From the NCBI GenBank assembly GCA_024275095.1, contig JAJRZV010000108.1, positions 1 through 32,032 on the forward strand: DNA of 32,032 bases. The letters run 5' to 3'. Shown one piece after another: positions 17,158 to 31,687 of this stretch. Position 1 is the stretch's first letter. Each line of letters opens with the position of its first letter. This DNA is from a bacterium. GTDB taxonomy: Bacteria; JAJRZV01. Position numbers and translations under genes: made by a program. Under the pieces are notes generated by a model. That model had not been told where the DNA came from. It did no database searches and was given only the letters and a program-made list of their open reading frames with translations.

Positions 17158-17365
17158 GTGAGACTTTCGCTGAGATTCCAGCTTGACCCTGGAGAACTCA
17201 TCCTTCCCCTTTCATACAACCACCTTGTCCAGGCCATGATCTACAGCAACATAGACAACTCCATAGCTCACTGGCTCCATGACAGGGGCTTTGCTTTTGG
17301 TAAGCGGAGGTACAAACTCTTCACCTTCTCAAGGCTCCTGTCAAAAAAACGGCGGCTCAACCGGG
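17158..17365 (+). pseudogene. cas6: 5' stub (about 70 codons) of a cas6 gene
   Basis: LPLSYNHLVQAMIY...LHDRGFAFGKRRYKLFTFSRL matches the N-terminus of the intact cas6 at 28472 (YNHILQGFIY...LHEKGYVYGKRRFKLFTFSRL). No C-terminal G-loop. Confidence 0.9.
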
Positions 17366-17898
17366 ACATACGTGAGGACAAAAGAAGGCATGTGGTGGTT
17401 CCTCATAAACGTGATGACTACTTTTCCAGATTCACCCTCTCTTGCCACAGCACGTTTTCACTTTCTGCGAAAGAAGGAATAAAAGCCCTTGAAAAGGCTT
17501 ATGAAAAAGCAAAAAGCCTTCACTCAAGCTCTTTTGAAGGTCTGGCTACCCTGCTCACAGATAATGGGTCTACATTCATCGCAAAACAGTTCAGGGACTT
17601 TCTCAAAAAACACTTTGAAAACTTCTTCAGGCACATCAAGGTGAAATACAGATCACCTGAGCAAATTGGAGTGATCGAGAGATTTCACCAGAACCTGAAG
17701 CAAGAAGCCTTCTATCCCGCTGAAGTGCAGAACGTACTTCACCTGATAAACACGGTGGAACACTACACCTGGTACCCGGGCTCGCGCAGGCCCCCCTGGG
17801 CATCAGGACTGAGAACACCGGCAGAGGTTCATCTGAATAAATCTTTTCACGAGATCAGAAAATTGGGCTTTGACTCAAATGTTACGGGATATAAAACA
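17366..17898 (+). mobile_element. truncated IS3/IS481-like element: rve integrase C-terminal part plus probable right terminal inverted repeat
   Basis: TYVRTKEGMWWFLINV, then a 1-nt frameshift near 17414, then DYFSR...LLTDNGSTF...SPEQIGVIERFHQNLKQE...GLRTPAEV. Ends ...CAAATGTTACGGGATATAAAACA, resembling an IS3-family CA-3' end. Confidence 0.8.
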
Positions 17899-17918
17899 TC
17901 CATCCAGGAGATGCACGC

Positions 17919-18124
17919 ATGAGAAGAAACTCTCTCATGTTTTCCAGGGAAGTTGTTCCGCTTTTTCCTGGACCAATGCACAAACAGGCAGGATTTATCC
18001 GTCAGGAACTCCCCGCAGATTGCTCCATAGATATTCTTGTAAGAACCTCGGAGCAGATTAAAGAAAGAATTAAACTTGACGATTTTTCATCAAAAAGATT
18101 GTGTCTCAGGGAATAGAACTATGA
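17919..18124 (+). pseudogene. C-terminal remnant of a minimal nucleotidyltransferase (MNT antitoxin)
   Basis: IRQELPADCSIDILVRTSEQIKERIKLDDF; restoring one T in the run at 18083-18087 gives FIKKIVSQGIEL*. Its TGA then overlaps the HEPN ATG (ATGA). The GS..G..D.D N-terminus is absent. Confidence 0.65.
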
Positions 18125-18343: not shown

Positions 18344-20056
18344 GTGGAAGAGATTTTGATGAGCATTAAAAATTTTTATAAAAGTTATTTAATGATCTCC
18401 AATCCTCATAAATACCAGGAGTTTACGTGGGAATGTATTAAAAGATTAAACTTTCCCCTTTTTATAAAAGCACCCACTGGCTCAGGAAAGACAGAGGCTG
18501 TGCTGGCACCGTTTCTGTCACAATTTATTGACAACAATTTTACTATCGCTCCAAGGATGATATATGTTTTACCAATGAGAGTTCTGGTTAATTCTCTTGC
18601 TGATAGAGTTAGACAATACACCCGAAGAATAAATCCTCATATTTCTGTGGAGGTTCAGCACGGGGATGTTCCTAATTCCCCGTTCTTCATGGCAGACATA
18701 ATTTTTACCACTCTGGACCAGTTCGTCTATGGCTTTGCAAGGGCAAGCGGACAGGTGGGAAGGCATATAGATATTCCTGCAGGCGCCATTGCATCTTCAC
18801 TGGTGGTTTTTGATGAGGCCCACATGTACAGAGATGAATTTACATTTTCAATTATGAGGGCTGTAATGGAGATATTATATAAGAGCAATATTCCTTTTGT
18901 TGTAATGACAGCAACCATGCCAGAAACTCTTGAAAGAAGCCTTTTTGAAAATATCAATATGCCTGAAGATTGCAAAATATCTGCTTCAATACCTGCCAGT
19001 AACACGCTTGACTTCTATCTTGAGAAAGGACCTTTATATTCTGATGATGAAGTGAATATTCCTGAGGTAATTTTAGATAAAATCAGAGAAAAGAAAACTT
19101 TAATCGTTGTCAATCAGGTTAAAAGAGCACAGAAGATTTATGAAGATATTAAATTGAGGCTTAATCTTAACGACAAACAAATTGTTTTACTGCATTCACG
19201 GTTTACAAAAGCAGATAGAAAAGACCATGAAGAACAAGCAATTTCGTTAATCCCGCGCAAAAAGGATGGGAAAATTGTAATCCCTGAAGGCGTAGGAATT
19301 GTTGTCTCAACGCAGGTTCTCGAGGCAGGCATTGATTTTTCGGCAGAATTTTTGCTGACTGAACTTGCCCCTGCTGATTCACTGGTTCAGAGAGCTGGGA
19401 GATGTGCAAGATATGAAGGCGAAAGGGGGGAGATGGTAATTTTCCCGGTGGATGGAAAAGACAGGAATCATCTGCCTTACAAAAAAGAGCATTTAGAAAA
19501 AACGCTTGAGTGGTTGAAAAGAAATGAACAGTTTAACATTAAAAATTTTAATGAAGTTTGCTCTTTTGTTAATGAAACACTTGACTATCAGGCTAATGAT
19601 TATGAAGCAAGGGATACTTTGATTGACCTCTATGAGTGTGTTCTTTATGCAGATAGCAAACCAGATAATATTCAGGTGAGAAAAAGCAAACCTGTAAGAA
19701 TATTAGTTGTAGATTTTTCTCTTGGTATTGAAAATAAAAAATACAGGAAAAAGCAAAAAGACGAAATAGAAGAAATAGTAGAAAATTCGATAAAGAAAAC
19801 AAACATTCATGAAAATACTTTTGATACTGATATTGGGGTAGCATGGTCATTGTATAATAAAAAATTACTTAAATGGGAGTTAAAATGGGAACTTGATAAA
19901 GAAAAAAAGAAAAATTGGAAACTAATCTTTATAAAAAAAGATAATCCTGATGAAGAAGATATCAAAATAAGCCCTTTCAAAACTTATATTTTGAATGCAG
20001 AGAGCAACTATACTTCAGAAAAAGGAATAATTAACGATGACAGCTTTATTATCTAG
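18344..20056 (+). CDS. cas3: CRISPR-associated helicase Cas3' (no fused HD domain)
   Basis: APTGSGKT, YVLPMRVL, TTLDQ, FDEAH, MTAT, LLHSRF, STQVLEAGID, QRAGRCAR. Confidence 0.96.
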   Translation: MEEILMSIKNFYKSYLMISNPHKYQEFTWECIKRLNFPLFIKAPTGSGKTEAVLAPFLSQFIDNNFTIAPRMIYVLPMRVLVNSLADRVRQYTRRINPHISVEVQHGDVPNSPFFMADIIFTTLDQFVYGFARASGQVGRHIDIPAGAIASSLVVFDEAHMYRDEFTFSIMRAVMEILYKSNIPFVVMTATMPETLERSLFENINMPEDCKISASIPASNTLDFYLEKGPLYSDDEVNIPEVILDKIREKKTLIVVNQVKRAQKIYEDIKLRLNLNDKQIVLLHSRFTKADRKDHEEQAISLIPRKKDGKIVIPEGVGIVVSTQVLEAGIDFSAEFLLTELAPADSLVQRAGRCARYEGERGEMVIFPVDGKDRNHLPYKKEHLEKTLEWLKRNEQFNIKNFNEVCSFVNETLDYQANDYEARDTLIDLYECVLYADSKPDNIQVRKSKPVRILVVDFSLGIENKKYRKKQKDEIEEIVENSIKKTNIHENTFDTDIGVAWSLYNKKLLKWELKWELDKEKKKNWKLIFIKKDNPDEEDIKISPFKTYILNAESNYTSEKGIINDDSFII

Positions 20057-20768
20057 CCCCGAAGAGGAATATAGATTTCATATAGAAAGATGTAAAGAAA
20101 AATTAAACCTCCTCTTCCATGTATTTGAACTTACATTAAAAAGGATATTTGGAATAGGGGATAATAAAATGCTAAAAGATGCTGTTTTAAATATGGTTCT
20201 TTATCATGACCTCGGTAAGTTAACAAAAAGATGGCAGGATAATGTTGGAACATCTCGTAAACTCCCTTCTCATGCACCCATAGGAGCAGGATATTTATAT
20301 AAAAAATTTACTAAAGAAAAGATCCCTGAAGATTTGAAGAATGCGATTTGTTTTGCAGTAGCTATTCATCATACTGACAAGGGACTGCTTGGAGATAACA
20401 TAGAAAAACCCGATGTCCAGGCTATATTAGAAGATGTAGCAAATAATTATGGAGAAATAATATGGGCAGATGAAGCAAAAACTTTAGGAGATGAATATTT
20501 TGATTCTCTTGCAGAGAATTTAACAATTTATGATTTAAAAGAAATGGCAAGAGGATTAAGAATATGGGCACTAGGGGATTCTATTATCCATCAACATAAA
20601 AAACGATTACAGGCAACCCTTATGCACCATATATTGAAATTATGTGACATTTCTGCCGCTTTGGAGAGGAAAGCATATAAAAAGAAGGAAGAGGATTACT
20701 ATGGTGGGTGGTTGATGGTGGAGGGGATAAAAAAATACATGGATAATGTTAAACAAAGAGGTGTTTGA
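20037..20768 (+). CDS. cas3'': CRISPR-associated HD nuclease Cas3'' (standalone)
   Basis: FH...YHDLGK...SHA...IHH...LKLCD pattern; overlaps the cas3' end. Split cas3 is typical of type I-A. Confidence 0.92.
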   Translation: MTALLSSPEEEYRFHIERCKEKLNLLFHVFELTLKRIFGIGDNKMLKDAVLNMVLYHDLGKLTKRWQDNVGTSRKLPSHAPIGAGYLYKKFTKEKIPEDLKNAICFAVAIHHTDKGLLGDNIEKPDVQAILEDVANNYGEIIWADEAKTLGDEYFDSLAENLTIYDLKEMARGLRIWALGDSIIHQHKKRLQATLMHHILKLCDISAALERKAYKKKEEDYYGGWLMVEGIKKYMDNVKQRGV

Positions 20769-22724
20769 ATGGCAAAAGAATTTATCCCTGAACTGCATGA
20801 TATTGGTAAGCTTATTGACAAAGAGAAATTAAAACAAGAGAATCTTCAATGGAGCAGACATACTTTTGAAGATTTTGATTTTAACCAGGCGGGCTTTGTA
20901 AAACCAACTTCCCCTTCTTGGTGGGGCCAATATCATCACAGGATAGATGTAAATAAGGATTTAAATGACTGGACACATATTGATGGTAACCATAAACCCG
21001 ATCTATTCTTATTGATATTGGCTGATCATCTTGCTTCTTCAATTTCACGAGCCTTACCACAACTGGGGAGTGCAGGAGAATCGGACAGTATTCTAAAACT
21101 TTGGAACCATGGTTATTCTGAAAATCAACGAAATAAAGGTAAACATTGGGCAGCATTTAAAACAAAAGATGATTTAAAGAGTATGTTTGAACTTATTGAC
21201 AGCATTACATCATATAAAGATTTTTTAGATGCGTATCGAGAGAATCTTCTCTTAACCCCGGAAGATAAATCTATACCAAGAAATATCACTTCTCTTTTTA
21301 CTCACATTAAATTGGTAGGAAAGATATATCGAGTTCTCAAAAGACATATCTTAATTAAAAATAATGGCAAGAGAATTTTATTTGAACTATCTGGAGAACA
21401 AGTAAAAAGTATTAGAGAAACAGAAGGGGGCAACAGAACAACTGGAAACCAAAATGTTGATAAAGGCAGATGGCAAGCAAGATTTGTCAAATGCCACATA
21501 AAGTTCCCACACTCTTTTGTTAGACTTCAAGACATCAATCTATTAGTTAAAAGGAATAAATTGGTTTCTAAACTTGTCGATAATTATGAGGATTATGTGA
21601 TATTCTATAATCCCGACTTCTTATTTCTTTTTCTGCCAATGGGGATAGAAATAGAAGATATATTCAAGGAGCTTCTAAATCTTAAGTTCTTTATTGACTA
21701 TGTAGAAATAATCGCAGATCTGGGCATTCTACGATCAAATCTTGACAGCAAAATCATCAGAGCAAGAAGGGATAGAGATATTCAAACTCTTAATGTCCTT
21801 CAAAATAGAAAATCAAAGGTTTACAAAAAGATACTTTTACCTGAATTTCCAGAGAAAATTTATCCCCCTATCTGTGACATTTGCCAGAGAGAACGAGCTA
21901 CAGAGAGAGCAAAAGAGAATATAAGAGAATGGCTCTGTGATAAATGCCAAAGTATAAGGGATATGGATGAGCCTTTTAGAGAATATGCTGAATGGACTGA
22001 TGAAAAAGTGGTCTGGTTAAAGTTTAATTTCAATCAGGATAAGTTAGAAAAATGGTTACAGGAAGCCTTTGAAGAATACATAGATAAAATACCAAATTTA
22101 GAAAATGGTCAAGTATTGAAAGAAGAATTCCGTTCCTTGGCACCACAGATGGATTTTATTAACGATTATGAAGAGATGCTATTAAATTTTTGGCAACGGT
22201 GTTCAGAGGACGATATTAAGAGACCGATATCAAATTATAATGAGATTGCAACATTTAAATATTCAGGACTCCTTATAATGAAAATAATAACACTCTTTAT
22301 AGAGCTACATGATGCTTATTTCCTCGACTGTAAAAGTAACACAGATTCTCCTATAAGCTTATCTTTGAGTATTGCTCATCATAAATATCCCATTCGTGAA
22401 CACTGGAGATATTTTGAGAATCCAATAAATTTTTTAAATATTAGGTATCATAATGTTTTTAAAGAGAACTATACTAAGGAAGAAGCTAAAGAGATAATAG
22501 AAAAATTAATAACCTCTGAAAAAGTCTCATCGCATTTTCTCCATAACTTGATTGCTTTATATGAGGAATTAGATTCTGAACTTCATATTGCAATAGAATT
22601 ACTCAACAATAGGAAGAAATATCCAGAGCCTTTTGAATTATATTCAAGGCTTGGCATCCCGCCGGTAAAATTCCTAAATTTTTGTAGAATAGCGGAGGAA
22701 GAAAAAGATGTTCTTCAGACTTAA
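20769..22724 (+). CDS. cas10: Cas10-like large subunit with HD domain and degenerate Palm (type III-F-like)
   Basis: N-terminal LHDIGK, QYHH, LADHLASS, TSLFTH (compare Csm1 SLYDH), zinc finger CDIC...CDKC, Palm2 tail LSLSIAHHKYPI. No GGDD; 651 aa. Confidence 0.82.
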   Translation: MAKEFIPELHDIGKLIDKEKLKQENLQWSRHTFEDFDFNQAGFVKPTSPSWWGQYHHRIDVNKDLNDWTHIDGNHKPDLFLLILADHLASSISRALPQLGSAGESDSILKLWNHGYSENQRNKGKHWAAFKTKDDLKSMFELIDSITSYKDFLDAYRENLLLTPEDKSIPRNITSLFTHIKLVGKIYRVLKRHILIKNNGKRILFELSGEQVKSIRETEGGNRTTGNQNVDKGRWQARFVKCHIKFPHSFVRLQDINLLVKRNKLVSKLVDNYEDYVIFYNPDFLFLFLPMGIEIEDIFKELLNLKFFIDYVEIIADLGILRSNLDSKIIRARRDRDIQTLNVLQNRKSKVYKKILLPEFPEKIYPPICDICQRERATERAKENIREWLCDKCQSIRDMDEPFREYAEWTDEKVVWLKFNFNQDKLEKWLQEAFEEYIDKIPNLENGQVLKEEFRSLAPQMDFINDYEEMLLNFWQRCSEDDIKRPISNYNEIATFKYSGLLIMKIITLFIELHDAYFLDCKSNTDSPISLSLSIAHHKYPIREHWRYFENPINFLNIRYHNVFKENYTKEEAKEIIEKLITSEKVSSHFLHNLIALYEELDSELHIAIELLNNRKKYPEPFELYSRLGIPPVKFLNFCRIAEEEKDVLQT

Positions 22725-23322
22725 AGTTCATATAGATTCTATAGTAATTGGAGAAAGAATTAAAGGCGGAACTTATAGGCCTTGCCTGGAAACAATTCCT
22801 TCTTCTACCATCAAAGGTGTATTCAGGCACTTCTTTGGTAAAGATGTTAAGGGAGTAGGCCATTTTGAAAAAGGAACCTATGAGCAAAAAGAGCTAATCT
22901 ATTCTGTGAAGGATAAATATCTTGAAGCTGCTAAAATGCCCATTATTTCTAGTTATTTAGCACCAAAGAATACAGAAAAAATAAAGGCAGATATTTTTAT
23001 TGTTAAAGAAAATCATATCACTAAAGACATGTTTGATAACTTTATCTTTACAATGGGGGGATTGAAAAGCAGAGGTTTTGGTAGATCTGAGGTAATAAAT
23101 GTTGAAGAAGTGACACCACAAATTAAACAGGGATGGTTAAAAATCAGGATATTTGAAGATGAAGTTGAATATTTTGCGATACAAGCTTTGTCTCCTCTTT
23201 ATGGCTACCTTTTTCATCCGACTGATTTTGTTTCTGGTTTTTATAAAAGAGCATTGTTCGAAGGAAGTCTTGTAAAAGCACCAGAGATATTTTTAGAAAA
23301 GGAGAGCTATTATGATGAGTAA
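22708..23322 (+). CDS. Cas5-group RAMP of the III-F-like module
   Basis: IPSSTIKG and G-loop MGGLKSRGFG; directly after cas10. Confidence 0.75.
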   Translation: MFFRLKVHIDSIVIGERIKGGTYRPCLETIPSSTIKGVFRHFFGKDVKGVGHFEKGTYEQKELIYSVKDKYLEAAKMPIISSYLAPKNTEKIKADIFIVKENHITKDMFDNFIFTMGGLKSRGFGRSEVINVEEVTPQIKQGWLKIRIFEDEVEYFAIQALSPLYGYLFHPTDFVSGFYKRALFEGSLVKAPEIFLEKESYYDE

Positions 23323-23869
23323 AATGGATTTAATCCTCCGAAAGGTATTAAACGATCCAGATATCTTCTGGATAAGGAAAGAAATTTTTAAGAAGGACGA
23401 ATGGAGCGATTTAAGAAAGGATTTAGGAAAGCCAGAAGAATTTAATAAAAAAGTAGATATCAAGATACAGAAGTTAGAAGAAGAGAAGAATAAGGAACAG
23501 GATAATAAGAAAAAGAAAACAATTGAAGCTGCGATAGAGCAATGTAAAGGGATTAAAACCACTTTAGAACAAAATCCATATCTTGTTAAACAACTGTTTG
23601 ACAATCTTGAGTCCTTTGGAATAGTTCAAAGTAATCTTCCTAATATGGATGATCATGGGAAGATAATAGAGAGACACAACTTTTCTATAGTTGAGCAATT
23701 TTTCTTGGACAAAATAAAAAGAGAAAATAACCCACACAAGAAAAAGGCTCTTAAAAAAATTCTAGGATATTTTAAAGAACTGGCTGAATTTAATCAATCC
23801 ATTTTAGAAATAGCCTTTTTCGTTAGAAAACTCGATTCATTACAGAAATTATGGGAGATATCAAAATGA
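23312..23869 (+). CDS. alpha-helical small subunit, Cas11/Csx26-like
   Basis: 185 aa, charged and helical-looking with no enzyme motif. Assigned by its position between the Cas5 and Cas7 RAMPs. Confidence 0.55.
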   Translation: MMSKMDLILRKVLNDPDIFWIRKEIFKKDEWSDLRKDLGKPEEFNKKVDIKIQKLEEEKNKEQDNKKKKTIEAAIEQCKGIKTTLEQNPYLVKQLFDNLESFGIVQSNLPNMDDHGKIIERHNFSIVEQFFLDKIKRENNPHKKKALKKILGYFKELAEFNQSILEIAFFVRKLDSLQKLWEISK

Positions 23870-23899
23870 ATGCATTAAAAGTAACTCTATAATGGAGAA

Positions 23900-24721
23900 A
23901 TGGAAATAAACTTCAAGCAAGAGGGTAAGGTAGAACTATTGCTTTTGCCTATATGTATTACTGTTGAAGAAGGCTCTTTTCTCCATATAGGAACGGCTCC
24001 TTCACCCCTGACAGAAAAGAAAGGAGCCATTTTTAAAGTTGATAGAATACCGGTGATTCCTGCTACAAGTTTCAAAGGTGCTTTGAGAAATCAATTAGAA
24101 TTGCTGTTGATAGAAAAACTTACTGAACTCAAGGAAAGCCTTAAGTTGGATGATGACAATATTCTTAAGCCCTGCGTTCCAGCTCCAAGACCTACCAGAG
24201 CTGAAAAAGAGCTAATAAATTCAGGAACCTATAGAGGAGATCATTGTGAAATTCGGTCAGATGAAGAAAAGATAGAGGTAGGCAATTCAGGTATTTGCCC
24301 TGTTTGCTACTTTATGGGAGCAACAGGAATAATGGGTTTCTTAAGATTTACAAACTTTTATGCTGAAGAAGGAGATTGGTTAATTGATCAAATTAACATC
24401 AGAATAGATAGAAAAACAGGCACTGCAGCACATCGAGCGAAAGTTGATGGTGAACAGGTTAAACCGGGCACAATTTTTACTGGAGCAGTTGAACTAATAA
24501 ATAAAACACCTCAAGGTTTTGAATTTGGACACCCAAGAAAGATAGGCAACGTTATAATAGATAAATGGTTAGAAAAGCGGGCTGACCAAGATAACAATCG
24601 CAGAAAAAAGATCCTGATTGAGAAAATTCTCCTCCCCGCTATTCAAAATGTTAAACTTTTAGGTGGGCAGAAAAGTAAAGGAGCAGGAAAAGTTAAAGTT
24701 GAAATAATAATAAATGCTTAA
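23900..24721 (+). CDS. Cas7-group RAMP (Csm3-like backbone) of the III-F-like module
   Basis: LHIG, PVIPATSFKGALR, C..HC..CPVCYFMG, IRIDRKTGTA, LLGGQKSKGAG. Confidence 0.88.
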   Translation: MEINFKQEGKVELLLLPICITVEEGSFLHIGTAPSPLTEKKGAIFKVDRIPVIPATSFKGALRNQLELLLIEKLTELKESLKLDDDNILKPCVPAPRPTRAEKELINSGTYRGDHCEIRSDEEKIEVGNSGICPVCYFMGATGIMGFLRFTNFYAEEGDWLIDQINIRIDRKTGTAAHRAKVDGEQVKPGTIFTGAVELINKTPQGFEFGHPRKIGNVIIDKWLEKRADQDNNRRKKILIEKILLPAIQNVKLLGGQKSKGAGKVKVEIIINA

Positions 24722-24732
24722 AGGATAAAATT

Positions 24733-26169
24733 ATGCTTACCCTTTACACCCCGGCAACAGGATTTCCAGATTTGGAGATAAAGATTGCTTATGGATTGGC
24801 GAGGGTGGGGATTGAGGCTGGGGCTGAAGTTTCTATCGTGCCACAGATTGGTTTTTATGAAGTTGTTTTTAATTCACTTCCTCATGTCTCGTCTCTGAAT
24901 AAAACATTTCATATTCTTTTGAAACGTATTCTTTCTAATAAAAAATTTTATAATTTAGGAGTCAAAGCAAGGTATAGAGCTGTATATCTTCCAGTTGATA
25001 TTAAAAAGAAAGACTTTAAAACTCATCTTTTAAAAATTGACCTGTCCAGTTTATATAAGCCTGCTAACATAGAAAAATATTTTGATTTCACGAGAGATAA
25101 AGCGTGTCATCATAAAAAAAATCCCAAATTTGGATCAACACAAAAGAATGCAAAAGGATTAGGGGGGTTGATACTACTTGCTTCTGTTCATGCAGGCAAA
25201 CCTCAGTATAGAGACAACAGGAAAAGAGATTTAAATTTGGGGTTGTGTGAAGCATGTGGATATCTCAATGTATTGGGGAAAGAGTCCTTTTCCTTTGAGA
25301 TTCAATTAGGAAAGGGTAAAAATAGAAAGTCTGTATGGGTTCTCCCTATCCCGAATAAAAAATTAGAAAACAAAAATATCCTAAGTTTGCTATCTCTCCA
25401 GAAGACATTACATAATTTCTGGCTTTCTGATTTGATACCTCTAAGGACTTTTGCTGTGGGATTATTAGCCAAGATTCCTTCACTTAGCGATATAATTGAA
25501 GAGTTAGAATTGAGTTTTCACCTCTCGTTAGTTTCAAAAAATAATAGAGGTGACACAGTTGTAGAACAAACAGCAGTTGTAAATACAATGCCATTTTCGA
25601 AGTTTATTACAAACTCACCATATAATTCTGTTACTTTGGAAAGATTATTATCAGGTCAACCCAAAGTTCCATCTTTGATTAAAATTGTAGATATACTTGA
25701 GAATAACAAGGGAAAGGATTTACCAACATTCGCCCGCCTCTATGTTCAGGAAACATCATCAGATAACCGGGTAAATCTTTTATACCCGGAAACAACAAAA
25801 TATCTTTTAAAGGAGGTTGCTATGATTGATTCAAAAATCATTGAAAACCCCGCACTGGAGAGTCTCGCAAGGACTCTCCGATATTTTATAAAAAAACGAA
25901 AATATAGTTATGCTGATGACATCAGAAATGCAAAAAAAGAATCCAGAGATTTTGAAGAGACAATTGCAAAGATGTTGAGAGAAGGAAAACTCAGGCTTGA
26001 ACAAGAAGAGATGATTCACCTTCCAGATACAGAAGAAATAAAGGAAGTATTTAAACTCGCTAATGAAGATTTTGAAAGCACAAAAACTGCGCTTGTAATC
26101 CTTGCCTTTTCATTTCCTTCAAGGGATGAAAAAGAGCAAAAAACAACACAGGAGGTCCAAAATGCTTAA
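24733..26169 (+). CDS. cas8a: type I-A-like large subunit Cas8a (Csx9/Cas8a2-like) with C-terminal Cas11-like domain
   Basis: YTPATGFPDLEIKIAYGLARV N-terminus, HAGK...LCEACG zinc motif, position before cas7-cas5. Confidence 0.72.
   Translation: MLTLYTPATGFPDLEIKIAYGLARVGIEAGAEVSIVPQIGFYEVVFNSLPHVSSLNKTFHILLKRILSNKKFYNLGVKARYRAVYLPVDIKKKDFKTHLLKIDLSSLYKPANIEKYFDFTRDKACHHKKNPKFGSTQKNAKGLGGLILLASVHAGKPQYRDNRKRDLNLGLCEACGYLNVLGKESFSFEIQLGKGKNRKSVWVLPIPNKKLENKNILSLLSLQKTLHNFWLSDLIPLRTFAVGLLAKIPSLSDIIEELELSFHLSLVSKNNRGDTVVEQTAVVNTMPFSKFITNSPYNSVTLERLLSGQPKVPSLIKIVDILENNKGKDLPTFARLYVQETSSDNRVNLLYPETTKYLLKEVAMIDSKIIENPALESLARTLRYFIKKRKYSYADDIRNAKKESRDFEETIAKMLREGKLRLEQEEMIHLPDTEEIKEVFKLANEDFESTKTALVILAFSFPSRDEKEQKTTQEVQNA
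25822..26169 (+). CDS. putative internally translated Cas11 (Csa5-like) small subunit, 115 aa, in frame within cas8a
   Basis: AAGGAGGT at 25810-25817 precedes the in-frame ATG at 25822 (Met364). Product MIDSKIIENPALESLARTLRYFIKKRKYSYADDIRNA... looks all-helical. Confidence 0.65.
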   Translation: MIDSKIIENPALESLARTLRYFIKKRKYSYADDIRNAKKESRDFEETIAKMLREGKLRLEQEEMIHLPDTEEIKEVFKLANEDFESTKTALVILAFSFPSRDEKEQKTTQEVQNA

Positions 26170-27100
26170 ATTTGTAACTTTTGCCGTAAAGGTGCAATTA
26201 AATGTGCATGATTTAAACAATGAAGCAGTAGCAGGTAATGTGACTGATATAAGGGTAATGGAGTTTCTTGATGAAAATGGAAAAAGGCAGGAAGCACCTG
26301 CGGTGTCAGGCAGAATGCTCAAACATTGGCATTGTGAAGGAATTAGACACCTAATAATAAGTGGCGAGTATTCCACCATTCCTCTCTGTGCAGGGTGCAA
26401 AGCAGGAGAACCAATAAGACCCGGTATGATTAATAATGGCAATCTCTCTCAAAATTCGGGTATTACAGAAGAGGAAGCTGTTCAAGGTTGTATAGTTTGC
26501 GATACCCATGGCTATTTAATTGCAACACCTGAAACCACGGCGGGGGAAGGTGGTGTCTCCGCACGGAGAAGTTCACGAGTTATGTTCTCATGGCTTATGC
26601 CTGTTATGGGTATGGAAGCAGTTTCTAAACAGGTAATTCATAACAGAGTTTCTGCTGACCCTAAAACAATGATGCCTTTCAACAAATCCTATGCCTCTGG
26701 CATTTATGCTTTTGTTTCTGCTCTTGATGTGGATAGAATTGGACTTGTTGAATTAAATCTTGGAAGTGATAATCCCTATGCAGTGGATGATAACAACGGA
26801 CGAAAAGACAGAATAAAAGTTGCTATTGAGGCATATCGCTATCTTATATCAGGACAGATAGGAGCGTCCCTATCACATGCCATTCCTCATTGGGACCCTA
26901 TTGAGATTTTAGTATGCTATTCTGAAAAAGGACCTTTACCTTTTCCCGTATCGCCGATATATCCTGACTATATTGTGAAAACTCTTGGAGTTATGCCTGA
27001 GGGAACAAGTTTCCTATACACTGGAAAGGATTCCCCTGAGGGAGTGAATAAAAAAGAAAAGATAGATGAAATCTTTAGGGAATTGTTGAACAAGGTATAA
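26162..27100 (+). CDS. cas7: Cas7 (DevR/Csa2 family)
   Basis: LNVHDLNNEAVAGNVTDIR, PAVSGRMLKHWH, CIVCDTHGYL, RRSSRVMFSW, IHNRV. ATG at 26162 behind an AGGAGG RBS. Confidence 0.92.
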   Translation: MLKFVTFAVKVQLNVHDLNNEAVAGNVTDIRVMEFLDENGKRQEAPAVSGRMLKHWHCEGIRHLIISGEYSTIPLCAGCKAGEPIRPGMINNGNLSQNSGITEEEAVQGCIVCDTHGYLIATPETTAGEGGVSARRSSRVMFSWLMPVMGMEAVSKQVIHNRVSADPKTMMPFNKSYASGIYAFVSALDVDRIGLVELNLGSDNPYAVDDNNGRKDRIKVAIEAYRYLISGQIGASLSHAIPHWDPIEILVCYSEKGPLPFPVSPIYPDYIVKTLGVMPEGTSFLYTGKDSPEGVNKKEKIDEIFRELLNKV

Positions 27101-27103
27101 AAA

Positions 27104-27904
27104 TTGCAGGCTCTTGTTTTTGAGATAAGGCTGAATTCACTTTATTCTATTAGACTCCCCTTCACCTGGCAGTCCTCTTTGATCTATCCTGTTCTTCCCC
27201 CTTCCTCAGTTATAGGGCTCGCTGCCAATGCCCTGCAAAGGTATAAAAACAATAAGCATCCCCTTGAATATCTTAAAGAACTTCAAGAGAGGATTGAATG
27301 GGCAGGTTCAAGATTGCTTTTTCCCTGCGTTATAAAGAGTTATACGACTTCAGCTATTACAAAGTGGAAAATTCCCCTGGGTGGAAAGTCTACAAATGCC
27401 CTGGGAAGAGAATTTGCATATAGCAGGGGAATGCAACTTCTTATAATCTATAAAGATGAAGAACTTATTAAAGAGACGGCTTTGGCCTTAAAAACTTCCC
27501 CGATTACAGCTGGAGATAGCGAGTCTCCAGTTTTTATAAACGACGGTCCGTATATAAAAAAGGTTAAAAAATATAATGTAAACAAAGAAGAAACTGTTGT
27601 AACAAATTTTCCTTTTCCTTTTGAACCTCAAAAATTAGAAATAATTGAAGGGAGAGGGTTAGTGTTTCTTTTTCACGAAAAGTGCTTAAAAATTAAAAAT
27701 TTTCCATTGAGAACTTATGTATGTCCTTTGGCGATGGGAAGCAAAAATATAATTTGTCCAGAAACTGTTAAATTAAAATTTAAACAGGAGGCGACAATAT
27801 TTGAGGTAGAGGAAGCAGGTAAAATTGTATTTTTCCCTGCATCAACTGAAGAGTCATCCTGCCCATCTATTAAGAAGAAAGGAGGGGGTAAAAAGAAGAG
27901 GTAA
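27104..27904 (+). CDS. cas5: Cas5, type I-A-like
   Basis: YSIRLPFTWQSSLIYPVLPPSSVIGLAANA, AGDSES. Confidence 0.9.
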   Translation: MQALVFEIRLNSLYSIRLPFTWQSSLIYPVLPPSSVIGLAANALQRYKNNKHPLEYLKELQERIEWAGSRLLFPCVIKSYTTSAITKWKIPLGGKSTNALGREFAYSRGMQLLIIYKDEELIKETALALKTSPITAGDSESPVFINDGPYIKKVKKYNVNKEETVVTNFPFPFEPQKLEIIEGRGLVFLFHEKCLKIKNFPLRTYVCPLAMGSKNIICPETVKLKFKQEATIFEVEEAGKIVFFPASTEESSCPSIKKKGGGKKKR

Positions 27905-27938
27905 CTTTCAGAATGATTTTTGCCTAAATAAAAAGGTA

Positions 27939-28433
27939 ATGCCCCAAGTAACCGGCACACTTATCTGGTATTATTTCATATGCAAGAGGGAGGTGTGGTT
28001 GATGGGTCACGGAATAACTCCGTTCCAGGATAACCCCTTTGTGGAAATAGGGCGCTTGATTCACGAAGAGTCCTACCAGAGGGAAAAGAAAGAGGTAGAT
28101 GCAGGCAATATGAAATTTGACATTATAAAAAAGAGGGATGGCAAAGTTATTGTAGCAGAAGTTAAAAAATCCTCACGATTTATAGATTCTGCCACCATGC
28201 AACTTGTCTTTTACCTTTACAATCTCAAAAAGCAGGGGATTTCAGCAGAAGGGGAACTGCTTGTTCCAAGAGAGAAGAAAAGAATAAAAGTTGAACTTAC
28301 AGAAGATAATATAAAAAAAATTGAGAATGCGATTTCAGAAATCAGGGAAATAACAAACCGCGATATTCCGCCTCCAGTTGTAAAAAACAGGTATTGCAGA
28401 AGGTGTGCATTCAGTGACTTTTGCTGGGCATAA
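27939..28433 (+). CDS. cas4: CRISPR-associated exonuclease Cas4
   Basis: TGTLIWYYFICKREVWL, GRLIHE, KFD, EVKKS, QLVFYLY, CRRCAFSDFC Fe-S cysteines. Confidence 0.95.
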   Translation: MPQVTGTLIWYYFICKREVWLMGHGITPFQDNPFVEIGRLIHEESYQREKKEVDAGNMKFDIIKKRDGKVIVAEVKKSSRFIDSATMQLVFYLYNLKKQGISAEGELLVPREKKRIKVELTEDNIKKIENAISEIREITNRDIPPPVVKNRYCRRCAFSDFCWA

Positions 28434-28471
28434 ACTGGGAACAAATGTGCATTTTTGATATATTATAAATT

Positions 28472-29218
28472 ATGAGGATTAGAATAAATTTTGAAACCAG
28501 TGAAAGTAAAATAGTTTTTCCAGTTCATTACAATCATATTCTCCAGGGGTTTATATATTCCTGTATTGATGATGACCTTGCAGAGTTTCTTCATGAAAAA
28601 GGATATGTTTATGGAAAAAGAAGATTCAAACTCTTTACCTTTTCCAGACTTATGGGCAGCTGTTCATTTGATAGAAACAATAAAAAACTTGTTTATAATT
28701 CTTCAATTTATTTTATAATTGCATCGCCACTCGAAAGTTTTCTTGAAAGTCTCGTGAGAAATATGCTGAAGGGTGGTGAAATTAAGATGAACTCACAGAC
28801 GCTTTATGTTTCATCTGTGGAGGTTCTTCCTTTACCGGACCTGAACACCACTGCTTCAGTAAAGATAAAGATGCTTTCCCCTATAACAGTTTACAGCACC
28901 CTTACAAAAACAGACGGAAAAAAGAAGACATATTATTACAACCCTTATGAGAGGGAATTTGCAGAGCAAATAACAGAAAATCTCAGAAAAAAATATGTAA
29001 TCCTCAGGGGAAATGACGAAGGATTTGTGTTTGAGATAAAACCCAAAAACGTCAAATCCCGTGATGAAAAGATAATAATCTACAAGCAAACCGTCATCAA
29101 GGGATGGATGGGAACTTATACTGTAAAGGGGAGTATTGATGTTCTGAAAACTGCTTACGATACAGGAATAGGCAGCAAAAATTCTCAAGGTTTCGGGATG
29201 TTTGAGATAATTGGTTGA
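28472..29218 (+). CDS. cas6: CRISPR endoribonuclease Cas6
   Basis: YNHILQG, KLFTFSRL, LSPITVY, C-terminal GIGSKNSQGFG. Confidence 0.96.
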   Translation: MRIRINFETSESKIVFPVHYNHILQGFIYSCIDDDLAEFLHEKGYVYGKRRFKLFTFSRLMGSCSFDRNNKKLVYNSSIYFIIASPLESFLESLVRNMLKGGEIKMNSQTLYVSSVEVLPLPDLNTTASVKIKMLSPITVYSTLTKTDGKKKTYYYNPYEREFAEQITENLRKKYVILRGNDEGFVFEIKPKNVKSRDEKIIIYKQTVIKGWMGTYTVKGSIDVLKTAYDTGIGSKNSQGFGMFEIIG

Positions 29219-29227
29219 GGAAAAGAC

Positions 29228-29491
29228 ATGTTTGTAATTATGGTTTACGATGTAAATGAGAAAAGGGTTACCAGGGTTCTGAAAACAGCGAGAAAGTTCC
29301 TTACATGGGTTCAAAATTCAGTTCTTGAAGGCGAAATCACAGGAGCGAAATATGAAAAATTGAAATACGAAATCAAAAAAATCATAAACGAGGATGAAGA
29401 TTCAGTTATTTTTTATATTTTCAGAACAAGGCTTTACACATCAAGGGAAATAATGGGCGTTGAAAAAGGAAAAGAGGAAGTAATAATTTGA
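29228..29491 (+). CDS. cas2: CRISPR-associated Cas2
   Basis: MFVIMVYDV, WVQNSVLEG, EDSVIFY. Confidence 0.96.
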   Translation: MFVIMVYDVNEKRVTRVLKTARKFLTWVQNSVLEGEITGAKYEKLKYEIKKIINEDEDSVIFYIFRTRLYTSREIMGVEKGKEEVII

Positions 29492-29497
29492 ATTTAA

Positions 29498-30493
29498 ATG
29501 AAAAAGACAATTTACATTTTCTCTAACGGAGAGTTAAAAAGGAAACAAAACACCCTTTATTTTGAATCTTCAGACGGTGGTAAAAAATACATCCCGGTTG
29601 AGAATACAGGAGAAATACTTGTTTTTGGAGAGGTAACTATAAACAAAAAACTTATCGATTTTTTATCTCAGCATGAGATTGTTCTTCATTTTTATAATTA
29701 CTACGGGTTCTACTCAGGCACTTATTATCCACGTGAACATTACAATGCGGGCATAATCTTGTTAAAACAGGTTCAGCATTACCTTGATAATGATAAAAGG
29801 AGCATTCTCGCGAGAGGGTTTGTTAAAGGTGCTTTTGAGAACATCCAGAAGGTGCTTCAGTATTATAAAAACAGAGGAAGCGACCTTGAAGATGAAATAC
29901 AGAGAATATCTGAGTTTGAAGACCTGCTTGAAAACGCGAGTTCAATAGAAGAACTGATGGCTTTTGAGGGTAATGTAAGGGATATATACTACAGGTCATT
30001 CAACAAAATAATTAACAATGAAGATTTTTACTTTACAGGAAGGCGAAGAAGACCCCCGGGAAGCAGGATGGATGCTCTTATAAGTTTTGGCAACTCTCTG
30101 CTTTACACATTTTGTCTTTCAGAGATTTACAAAACTCATCTTGACCCCCGGATTGGTTTTCTCCACGCATCAAATTTCAGAAGGTTTTCTTTAAATCTTG
30201 ATATAGCAGAAGTTTTCAAACCAATTGTTGTGGACAGGTTGATTTTTTCGCTTGTGAATAAAGGTATTTTAAAGAAGGAACACTTTATTGATGAGATGGG
30301 CGGGCTTTACCTTGATGAAAAAGGAAGGAAAATCTTTGTTAAAGAAATAGACGAAAAATTAAAAAGCACTCTCAAGCACAGAAAACTCGGAAGGCACGTC
30401 TCATACAGGACATTAATCAAAATGGAACTTCACAAAGTTGAGAAGCATTTAATAGGTGAGGAAATGTATGCCCCCTTTGTAGCATGGTGGTGA
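29498..30493 (+). CDS. cas1: CRISPR-associated Cas1 (I-B HMARI/TNEAP-like clade)
   Basis: YIFSNGELKRKQNTL, LMAFEG, DALISFGNSLLY, LDPRIGFLH, SLNLDIAEVFKP. Confidence 0.97.
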   Translation: MKKTIYIFSNGELKRKQNTLYFESSDGGKKYIPVENTGEILVFGEVTINKKLIDFLSQHEIVLHFYNYYGFYSGTYYPREHYNAGIILLKQVQHYLDNDKRSILARGFVKGAFENIQKVLQYYKNRGSDLEDEIQRISEFEDLLENASSIEELMAFEGNVRDIYYRSFNKIINNEDFYFTGRRRRPPGSRMDALISFGNSLLYTFCLSEIYKTHLDPRIGFLHASNFRRFSLNLDIAEVFKPIVVDRLIFSLVNKGILKKEHFIDEMGGLYLDEKGRKIFVKEIDEKLKSTLKHRKLGRHVSYRTLIKMELHKVEKHLIGEEMYAPFVAWW

Positions 30494-30661: not shown

Positions 30662-31687
30662 GTTTGCAGCCTACCTATGAGGAATTGAAATAATATTCGC
30701 TTAAAATTTCAGGAATTAGAACTTCACGTTTGCAGCCTACCTATGAGGAATTGAAATATTTCATGTATATATAGTTCTTTCGGACTCGCCCACTGTTTGC
30801 AGCCTACCTATGAGGAATTGAAATCTATAGAGTCCTCTATGGGGAATTCGCGAGCACTCGTTTGCAGCCTACCTATGAGGAATTGAAATAGGAATATGGC
30901 AAAATACCGGCCTCCAAAGCCGGAGGTTTGCAGCCTACCTATGAGTAATTGAAATCGAGTTCGTCATACCGCCGAGCTACAGCCATCGCCTCGTTTGCAG
31001 CCTACCTATGAGGAATTGAAATTCGCCTCGATAATCCTGTCGGGCTCTCCGCTGCTCGGTTTGCAGCCTACCTATGAGGAATTGAAATTCAAGTATTTTT
31101 CTCATAAGCCTACCGACTATCACAGTTTGCAGCCTACCTATGAGGAATTGAAATCTGAGAGGAATAAAGCTTACAACGGGAGCGAATCTCTGTTTGCAGC
31201 CTACCTATGAGGAATTGAAATCGCATCCATTCTCTGACGCATAAGGGCATTTAATCCGTTTGCAGCCTACCTATGAGGAATTGAAATTAAACTTGCTGTT
31301 CATGGTCTGTTCTAAAAGTCAGTGTTTGCAGCCTACCTATGAGGAATTGAAATCTACTGGCTCTGGGTCGGCCTTGAGAACCTTTTTGTCCGTTTGCAGC
31401 CTACCTATGAGGAATTGAAATATCTCACACCCCACCCTCTTGTGTTGATCCGGGAGGTTTGCAGCCTACCTATGAGGAATTGAAATATGAGAGGTTTAAC
31501 GTCCGCCAGCCCTGTCGTGGGAGTTTGCAGCCTACCTATGAGGAATTGAAATCATCAGCTGGTGCTTCTTCTTCAGTTGAAAGCGTCAGTTTGCAGCCTA
31601 CCTATGAGGAATTGAAATTGCTGATGAGGGGACGATAATATCGGGATACTTCCGCGGGTTTGCAGCCTACCTATGAGGAATTGAAAG
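30662..31687 (+). CRISPR. CRISPR array: 16 repeats of 30 nt (GTTTGCAGCCTACCTATGAGGAATTGAAAT), 15 spacers of 35-39 nt
   Basis: Repeat starts at 30662, 30728, 30795, 30860, 30926, 30993, 31059, 31125, 31192, 31258, 31324, 31392, 31457, 31523, 31589, 31658. Repeat 5 has G>T at 30946 and the last repeat ends in G. The ATTGAAAN 3' end and upstream leader indicate plus-strand transcription. Confidence 0.99.

Follow-up and report, generated by a model that had tools for sequence, protein, structure and literature searches.

Internal translation of the small subunit Cas11 from within a large-subunit gene has been shown for type I CRISPR (short palindromic repeats, clustered and regularly interspaced) systems, namely from cas10d in type I-D, cas8b in type I-B and cas8c in type I-C (McBride et al., 2020; 10.1101/2020.04.18.045682), and an internally translated Cas11b is reported for the type I-B system of Haloferax (PMC11899642). 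By contrast, type I-A, like type I-E, is described in these two papers as encoding Cas11 by a separate gene (10.1101/2020.04.18.045682; PMC11899642), and for archaeal type I-A the order is given as csa5-cas7-cas5-cas3'-cas3''-cas8a, with csa5 separate (PMC4141822). A fused small subunit was proposed by Makarova et al. for some large subunits of types I-A to I-D (Cas8a1, Cas8b, Cas8c, Cmx1, and Cas10d) (Makarova et al., 2011; PMC3150331). Our literature search turned up no paper describing a Cas11 that is fused or internally translated in the Cas8a/Csa5 families; supplements, which lay outside the scope of that search, could hold such loci. Here, we analyzed the gene cas8a::csa5 (24733-26169, + strand) of a 32,032-nucleotide (nt) window, that is, the whole stretch of DNA under study (contig JAJRZV010000108.1 of the bacterial assembly GCA_024275095.1). 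A previous sequence-only reading of this window had proposed that this large-subunit gene hides a fused Cas11, which would be translated from its own ribosome-binding site and start codon. Our findings support this proposal, and we consider a functional internal start at Met364 of cas8a::csa5 to be likely on the sequence evidence, with a probability of roughly 0.85.

Like the large-subunit genes of types I-B, I-C, and I-D, cas8a::csa5 has a Cas11-fold domain at its 3' end and a conserved in-frame start with a ribosome-binding site at the domain boundary, so that one large and several small subunits would be expected. Unlike in those types, both parts belong to type I-A families (Cas8a and Csa5), and internal translation is here a prediction. 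The locus resembles archaeal type I-A systems in its Csa5/Cas11a and Cas8a folds (Sulfolobus 3zc4 and 9cro; Pyrococcus 7tr6 and 7r21), its split cas3'/cas3'', its Csa2-type Cas7, and the position of csa5 directly upstream of cas7. It differs from them in gene order, which is cas3'-cas3''-cas8a::csa5-cas7-cas5 in most of 122 related loci (42 from species genomes and 80 from metagenomes), a rotation that brings cas8a beside csa5, and in sequence, as the similarity to the solved archaeal proteins is too low for HMMER.

A Cas8a body joined to Csa5

The open reading frame (ORF) at 24733-26169 encodes 478 amino acids (54.4 kDa) and is a Cas8a body fused in frame to a complete Csa5/Cas11a domain. The large-subunit body, residues 1-343 (24733-25761, + strand), matches the PADLOC profile PDLC01216 for Cas8a (CAS-I-A) over positions 1-308 of 308 with 290.8 bits. 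Residues 346-473 match the PADLOC Cas11 profile with 213.4 bits, and residues 348-464 match the NCBIfam family TIGR01878 (Csa5) over positions 1-107 of 107 with 101.7 bits, against a cut-off of 53.35; the C-terminal 115 residues (364-478) on their own still score 86.4 bits over positions 17-107. The PADLOC profile for Cas8b spans residues 3-462 with just 55 bits, and type I-B is therefore not the best family. Some homologs carry PF09703, which we take to be Cas_Csa4, and Pfam gave no such match in the copy of the window. In line with the claim that no standalone csa5 exists, TIGR01878 matches only once across the 2.45 Mb of the assembly, a draft fragmented into 136 contigs, and this match lies inside ORF 24733-26169. 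The csa5/cas11 of this system, which in type I-A is otherwise a separate gene, is thus fused to cas8a, directly upstream of cas7.

Because HMMER finds none of the solved proteins, the link to them is made by fold and by curated family models. Specifically, phmmer with the 478-residue protein returned no match among solved structures at E≤1, profile searches against solved structures returned chance matches only (best E 0.28 and 0.58), and Pfam, with E values up to 10 allowed, matched no family to the 478-residue protein or to residues 1-363. The full-length AlphaFold2 model (predicted local distance difference test score, pLDDT, 90.8; predicted template modeling score 0.88) has as its best solved match in Foldseek the large subunit of the type I-A Cascade (the antiviral defense complex associated with CRISPR) from Pyrococcus (7tr6_C, E 5.5e-7); next come Cas8b chains of type I-B, which align with the whole 478-residue model (E 9.2e-6 to 6.1e-3). 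Residues 364-478 are modeled as an all-helical domain of seven helices (mean pLDDT 89.3), as had been predicted for the internal product. When this 115-residue model was compared with 48,161 chains using VIA-align, type I-A Cas11a/Csa5 chains ranked at the top (9cro_J, Z 11.7, root-mean-square deviation (rmsd) 3.4, 101 residues aligned; 3zc4_A, Z 11.1, rmsd 2.0, 95 aligned; 7r21_A, Z 10.3, rmsd 2.5, 93 aligned), and the next matches below the type I-A small subunits were type I-E Cse2 (Z 8.2-7.1). Foldseek likewise placed type I-A Cas11/Csa5 chains at all of ranks 1-10, with weak E values (0.065-1.0). According to the warning of the tool, a Z of about 11 falls in the range that can arise for helical bundles; what argues for a Cas11a fold is therefore the order of the matches and the family to which the best ones belong. 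In the structural alignment, residue 6 of Sulfolobus Csa5 pairs with residue 1 of the 115-residue model.

The fused architecture is widespread. A word-indexed protein search returned at least 252 matches at E≤0.001, most of them 450-490 amino acids long, which NCBI names ‘type I-A CRISPR-associated protein Csa5’ and which come from Thermodesulfovibrio, Thermodesulfobacterium, Aerophobetes, Atribacteria, Omnitrophica, and others. Cultured carriers among the named sources of homologs are Thermodesulfovibrio yellowstonii, Thermodesulfobacterium commune, T. thermophilum, and Caldicoprobacter oshimai. When 114 such fused proteins are aligned, Met364 is conserved in at least 90% and Glu361 is invariant. 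At the DNA level, we sampled 42 species-genome loci, of which six end before the site and 36 could be used, and the best 80 of 97 metagenome relatives; together with the window, these make up 117 sequences. The reading frame is open across the Cas8a/Csa5 junction in all 117, and no locus, whether from a genome (36) or a metagenome (80), is split at this site. For 13 of the metagenome loci, the upstream open frame reaches the start of the fetched DNA; among the other 67, the open frame upstream of the ATG runs for 344-381 codons in 66 and for 221 in one (L090), with no stop near the site. Six proteins considered as candidates for Cas8a-only genes (P0066, P0071, P0075, P0072, P0069, and P0062) were rejected as truncated proteins. 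Sixteen database proteins begin exactly at the ‘MI...’ of the Met364 position, and since no locus is split there, contigs that were cut short probably account for most of these gene calls.

The proposed internal ribosome-binding site and its conservation

The internal Shine-Dalgarno (SD) sequence AAGGAGGT (25810-25817, + strand) is spelled by codons K360-E361-V362 and ends 4 nt before an in-frame ATG (25822-25824), which is codon 364 of the ORF; the string of SD and ATG, AAGGAGGTTGCTATG, spans 25810-25824, where the sequence-only reading had placed it. From this ATG, 115 codons lead to the TAA at 26167-26169, and the proposed internal product, Cas11a/Csa5 (25822-26169, + strand), would be a protein of 115 amino acids with a mass of 13.6 kDa and an isoelectric point of 5.4. 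An A/U-rich tract, AAATATCTTTTA (25798-25809, + strand; codons 356-359), lies just upstream of the SD. A second SD is written into the same gene in the same way: that of cas7, AGGAGGT (26150-26156, + strand), is spelled by the Q-E-V codons CAG GAG GTC within the conserved C-terminal tail Q-E-V-Q-N-A of Csa5, and the cas7 ATG overlaps the stop codon of cas8a::csa5 (ATGCTTAA). The device of encoding E-V as GAG GTN is hence used twice in this gene, at the internal site and at the undisputed start of cas7. The overlapping stop and ATG suggest that Cas11a and Cas7 may be translationally coupled.

We assessed how often such a motif arises by chance with 1,892 long ORFs that do not overlap one another, a crude set taken from this assembly. 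AGGAGG occurs 4-9 nt before an internal in-frame ATG in 13 of 11,946 cases (58 for GGAGG or better) and before the crude ORF starts in 174 of 1,870 cases, so that this genome does use SD sites for real starts. One other internal AGGAGG was noted on contig C120 (30443-33247), in an ORF of 934 amino acids with a signal-peptide-like N-terminus, where it stands 7 nt before an in-frame ATG at codon 765; the translation has no evident CRISPR link, and we took this as a chance case.

Across the relatives, the site is conserved as a nucleotide signal. The codon for Met364 is ATG in 117 out of 117 sequences, the SD core is GGAGG in 112 and (A/G)GGAGA in the remaining 5, and the ATG follows 4-6 nt downstream of the motif. 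To separate the nucleotides from the residues that they encode, we used 91 distinct genes whose starts had been identified (28-100% identical to one another at the protein level, with a median of 53%; Met at the 364 position in all 91) and scored 120 conserved columns with a two-fold-degenerate residue for codons ending in G or C. Only two columns end in G in every case, E361 (GAG in 90 of 90) and K360 (AAG in 61 of 61), compared with 0.69 for the next-highest column and a median of 0.23 over the 120 columns. These genes are A+T-rich, and overall they encode Glu by GAG in 32.5% of cases (401 of 1,232) and Lys by AAG in 27.8%. Where residue 360 is not Lys, the codon still has the form NNG (AGG in 18 genes, GAG in 6, and CAG in 2), and in a locus from Caldicoprobacter (L037) the peptide has become R-R-V while the DNA still reads AGG AGG G. 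A smaller, earlier test (33 rows, 229 columns) likewise gave E361 as the sole column with a fixed non-preferred codon. The A/U-rich tract is also unusually uniform at synonymous sites, with AAA for K356 in 21 of 21 cases, CTT for L358 in 23 of 30, and TTA for L359 in 26 of 32, whereas CTT and TTA account for 29% and 33% of Leu codons in the same genes. The codon patterns at K360 and E361 argue that selection acts there on the nucleotides and not on the residues alone. The sequence-only reading had named conservation of the encoded K-E-V-x-M motif as a check of its proposal, and the motif withstands this check at the nucleotide level, in the SD, the ATG, and the fixed codons.

The strength of the internal site points in the same direction. 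Duplex energies were calculated against a generic anti-SD 9-mer, a consensus sequence, as the 3' end of the 16S rRNA was not found in this assembly. On this scale, the internal SD has a mean of -12.4 kcal/mol (n=117, range -13.4 to -8.5), compared with -6.0 kcal/mol for the start of cas8a itself (n=96). In each of 96 genes examined, no other in-frame ATG has as strong a site as the internal one, and among 461 such other ATGs just 2 come to -10 kcal/mol. The starts of cas7 (26162-27100, + strand, in the window) average -10.2 kcal/mol over 111 guessed starts, some of which are mis-guessed, and the clearly correct ones range from -11.0 to -13.2 kcal/mol; cas5 (27104-27904, + strand; identified by family profiles) begins with TTG behind a weak SD (AAGG). 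Strong sites for Cas7 and Cas11a and weak sites for Cas8a and Cas5 fit a complex of many Cas7, several Cas11, one Cas8, and one Cas5. Five Cas11 per type I-A Cascade are quoted in PMC11899642.

The boundary of the putative product was compared with that of short relatives. Searching 1.84 billion representative proteins with a profile of the C-terminal domain gave 52 matches, most of them fused or cut forms. Ten matches are short (97-130 amino acids) and are mostly distant relatives, with 24-38% identity to the C-terminal segment of the window, and 7 of these 10 begin within one residue of the Met364 position. We regard their starts as supportive rather than conclusive for the predicted boundary. 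Separately, a distant relative of 656 amino acids (P0188) carries two tandem Csa5-like stretches after the Cas8a body, the first of which follows a Met (…MNIQEIIEKE…), and may represent a large subunit in which the small-subunit module has been duplicated.

We propose that ribosomes would make the 54-kDa Cas8a::Csa5 from the weak start of the gene itself, while the strong internal SD AAGGAGGT and the Met364 start would yield free 13.6-kDa Cas11a, probably in excess. By analogy with the solved type I-A and the I-B/I-C complexes, several copies of free Cas11a would run along the Cas7 backbone and line the ‘belly’ of Cascade, and this row would be capped by the Csa5 copy fused to Cas8a.

Alternative explanations

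Several observations weigh against an internal start and should be considered together. In a single genome, the motif is not beyond chance, and its significance comes from its conservation in relatives. These relatives share ancestry, so the 117 sequences cannot be counted as independent events; setting the two columns against the others in the alignment controls for this, because all columns share one tree. The anti-SD behind the duplex energies is a generic consensus, and the assembly contains no 16S 3' end. Local RNA folding over the 117 loci is -6.2 kcal/mol at the site versus -3.0 kcal/mol in the window 40 nt upstream, with no clear unstructured dip centered on the start and with similar values elsewhere in the gene. 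Concerning the product boundary, three of the ten short relatives carry 4-19 extra N-terminal residues, and some short relatives may be gene-caller truncations. Moreover, the NCBIfam and PADLOC Cas11 profiles begin at residues 348 and 346, 16-18 residues upstream of Met364, so that an internal product would lack the helix at 352-362. The full-length model has no flexible linker and places Met364 in a four-residue loop between helices of a compact protein, and this Met could thus also be held by structure. Finally, it is from sequence and analogy that we infer both the free 13.6-kDa protein and its place in the complex.

In a first alternative, the gene yields no protein other than the fusion, the SD-like string merely follows from a K/R-E-V-x-M peptide that the structure requires, and the fused Csa5 is the sole small-subunit unit, like the tail of Cas8f in type I-F1. 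K/R360, E361, V362, and M364 are indeed conserved inside a compact, confidently modeled protein, and the large subunits of types I-F1 and I-G are described as having small-subunit-like tails without a conserved internal start (10.1101/2020.04.18.045682). Constraint on the residues nevertheless leaves the fixed rare codons unexplained (GAG in 90 of 90 and AAG in 61 of 61, against the median of 0.23), as it does the retention of NNG through changes among K, R, E, and Q and of AGGAGG where the peptide reads R-R-V, and an SD of this strength occurs at just 2 of the 461 other in-frame ATGs. We therefore consider a fused-only protein improbable. Slightly less probable still is a translational pause at the Cas8a/Csa5 boundary that would aid co-translational folding without any start. 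Pausing at SD-like sequences inside genes has been proposed and is disputed, and the motif does sit at a domain boundary. A pause, however, needs no ATG, yet all 117 sequences have one 4-6 nt downstream of the motif; most of the short relatives begin at the Met364 position, and the same E-V device serves as the true SD of cas7.

The two remaining alternatives are more remote. A free small subunit could be released by proteolytic cleavage near residue 364, and a C-terminal fragment of Cas8b was once taken for a cleavage product, as recounted in 10.1101/2020.04.18.045682. We find this very improbable here, as synonymous sites would not be under selection for an SD if cleavage were the source, and one cut would provide one Cas11 per Cas8a, against the several copies that PMC11899642 quotes for type I-A Cascade. 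Lastly, the fusion itself might be local to this genome, either because the contig was misassembled or because cas8a recently lost its stop codon. Although the assembly is a fragmented draft, we found no support for this, and the open frame across the junction in all 117 sequences, together with the at least 252 database proteins of about 450-490 amino acids that share the architecture, excludes it. Internal initiation at Met364 thus remains the explanation that we favor.

The surrounding locus and its relation to types I-A and I-B

The CRISPR-cas locus lies on the + strand and forms the right end of the window, in the order cas3'-cas3''-four genes of another system-cas8a::csa5-cas7-cas5-cas4, cas6, cas2, cas1-array. 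Split Cas3, as is typical of type I-A, is present as two adjacent ORFs, the cas3' helicase (18344-20056, + strand; TIGR01587, 216 bits) and the cas3'' HD nuclease (20037-20768, + strand; TIGR01596, 57.1 bits). Most of the 122 related loci have both genes, in the same order, upstream of cas8a::csa5. Cas7 belongs to the Csa2/DevR type (Pfam DevR, 167.9 bits; TIGR01875, 107.3 bits with a cut-off of 67.3). These features, together with the Cas8a profile score and the fold match to 7tr6_C, bear out the assignment to an I-A-like system in the sequence-only reading. The array (30662-31687, + strand) consists of 16 repeats of 30 nt, GTTTGCAGCCTACCTATGAGGAATTGAAAT. In several relatives (e.g. L004 and L008), about 570-640 nt separate the cas8a::csa5 stop from the cas7 start, leaving room for an extra small gene, in place of the 8-nt overlap in the window. 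The G+C content of the cas locus (18344-30493) is 35.2%, compared with 50.8% for the left 17 kb of the window and 47.8% for the genome; the locus thus looks horizontally acquired, in line with the scattering of its close relatives over many phyla. Toward the edge of this island, an ORF of 254 amino acids (17158-17922) starts with a sequence resembling the Cas6 of this locus and continues with unrelated integrase/transposase-like sequence, and the DNA at 17275-17336 is 71% identical to that at 28589-28650, inside cas6. This ORF may be what is left of a cas6 gene that a mobile element disrupted.

The four-gene insert between cas3'' and cas8a::csa5 (20769-24721) matches a type III-F effector module in PADLOC (Cas10a|Cas10f 581.9 bits, Cas5_IIIf 239.9, Cas11f 162.9, and Cas7_IIIf 330). 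We had also considered a type IV-C module, after PMC13676074, and rejected it, as PADLOC gives type III-F with 163-582 bits. The insert includes a small-subunit gene of this other system, cas11f (23312-23869), two genes upstream of cas8a::csa5. By these profile matches, a type III-F effector is nested within the type I-A operon, presumably sharing the Cas6 and the array of that operon. Among the 122 related loci, 13 have at least the insert gene adjoining cas8a in the same position (L007, L015, L038, L043, L057, L070, L080, L086, L095, L099, L110, L115, and L120). Our literature search found no report linking type III-F with type I-A.

With regard to type I-B, cas8a::csa5 shares the two-part architecture of Cas8b with a C-terminal Cas11b (8fcj_I, 8h67_L, and 8ip0_J), as seen in the Foldseek alignment over the whole model. 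It differs from type I-B in its profile scores, with 55 bits for Cas8b versus 290.8 and 213.4 bits for the type I-A profiles, and in its split Cas3, which is a type I-A habit. The families and the split Cas3 are thus those of type I-A, and it is type I-B that the gene resembles in its fused layout and hidden start. Going beyond the single gene, we lean toward a broader interpretation, in which a mostly bacterial I-A-like clade (at least 252 proteins) would make both Cas8a and Cas11a from one gene, with SD strengths set to the stoichiometry of Cascade, and would form a bridge between types I-A and I-B.

These findings also have practical consequences. Proteins of about 470 amino acids are publicly named plain ‘Csa5’, which hides the large subunit that they contain, and PADLOC catalogs the two halves of the fusion protein as separate profiles. 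If genes of this kind are recoded for the reconstitution of Cascade, codon optimization would destroy the internal SD and could silently lose Cas11a. The contrast in SD strength offers a testable rule for how subunit ratios are set. If our reading is true, this I-A-like lineage would have a one-gene-two-proteins solution with unusually clear sequence evidence, an SD spelled by fixed rare codons, and would show how a hidden cas11 arises, namely by the joining of csa5 to the end of cas8a while its own ribosome-binding site and start were kept.

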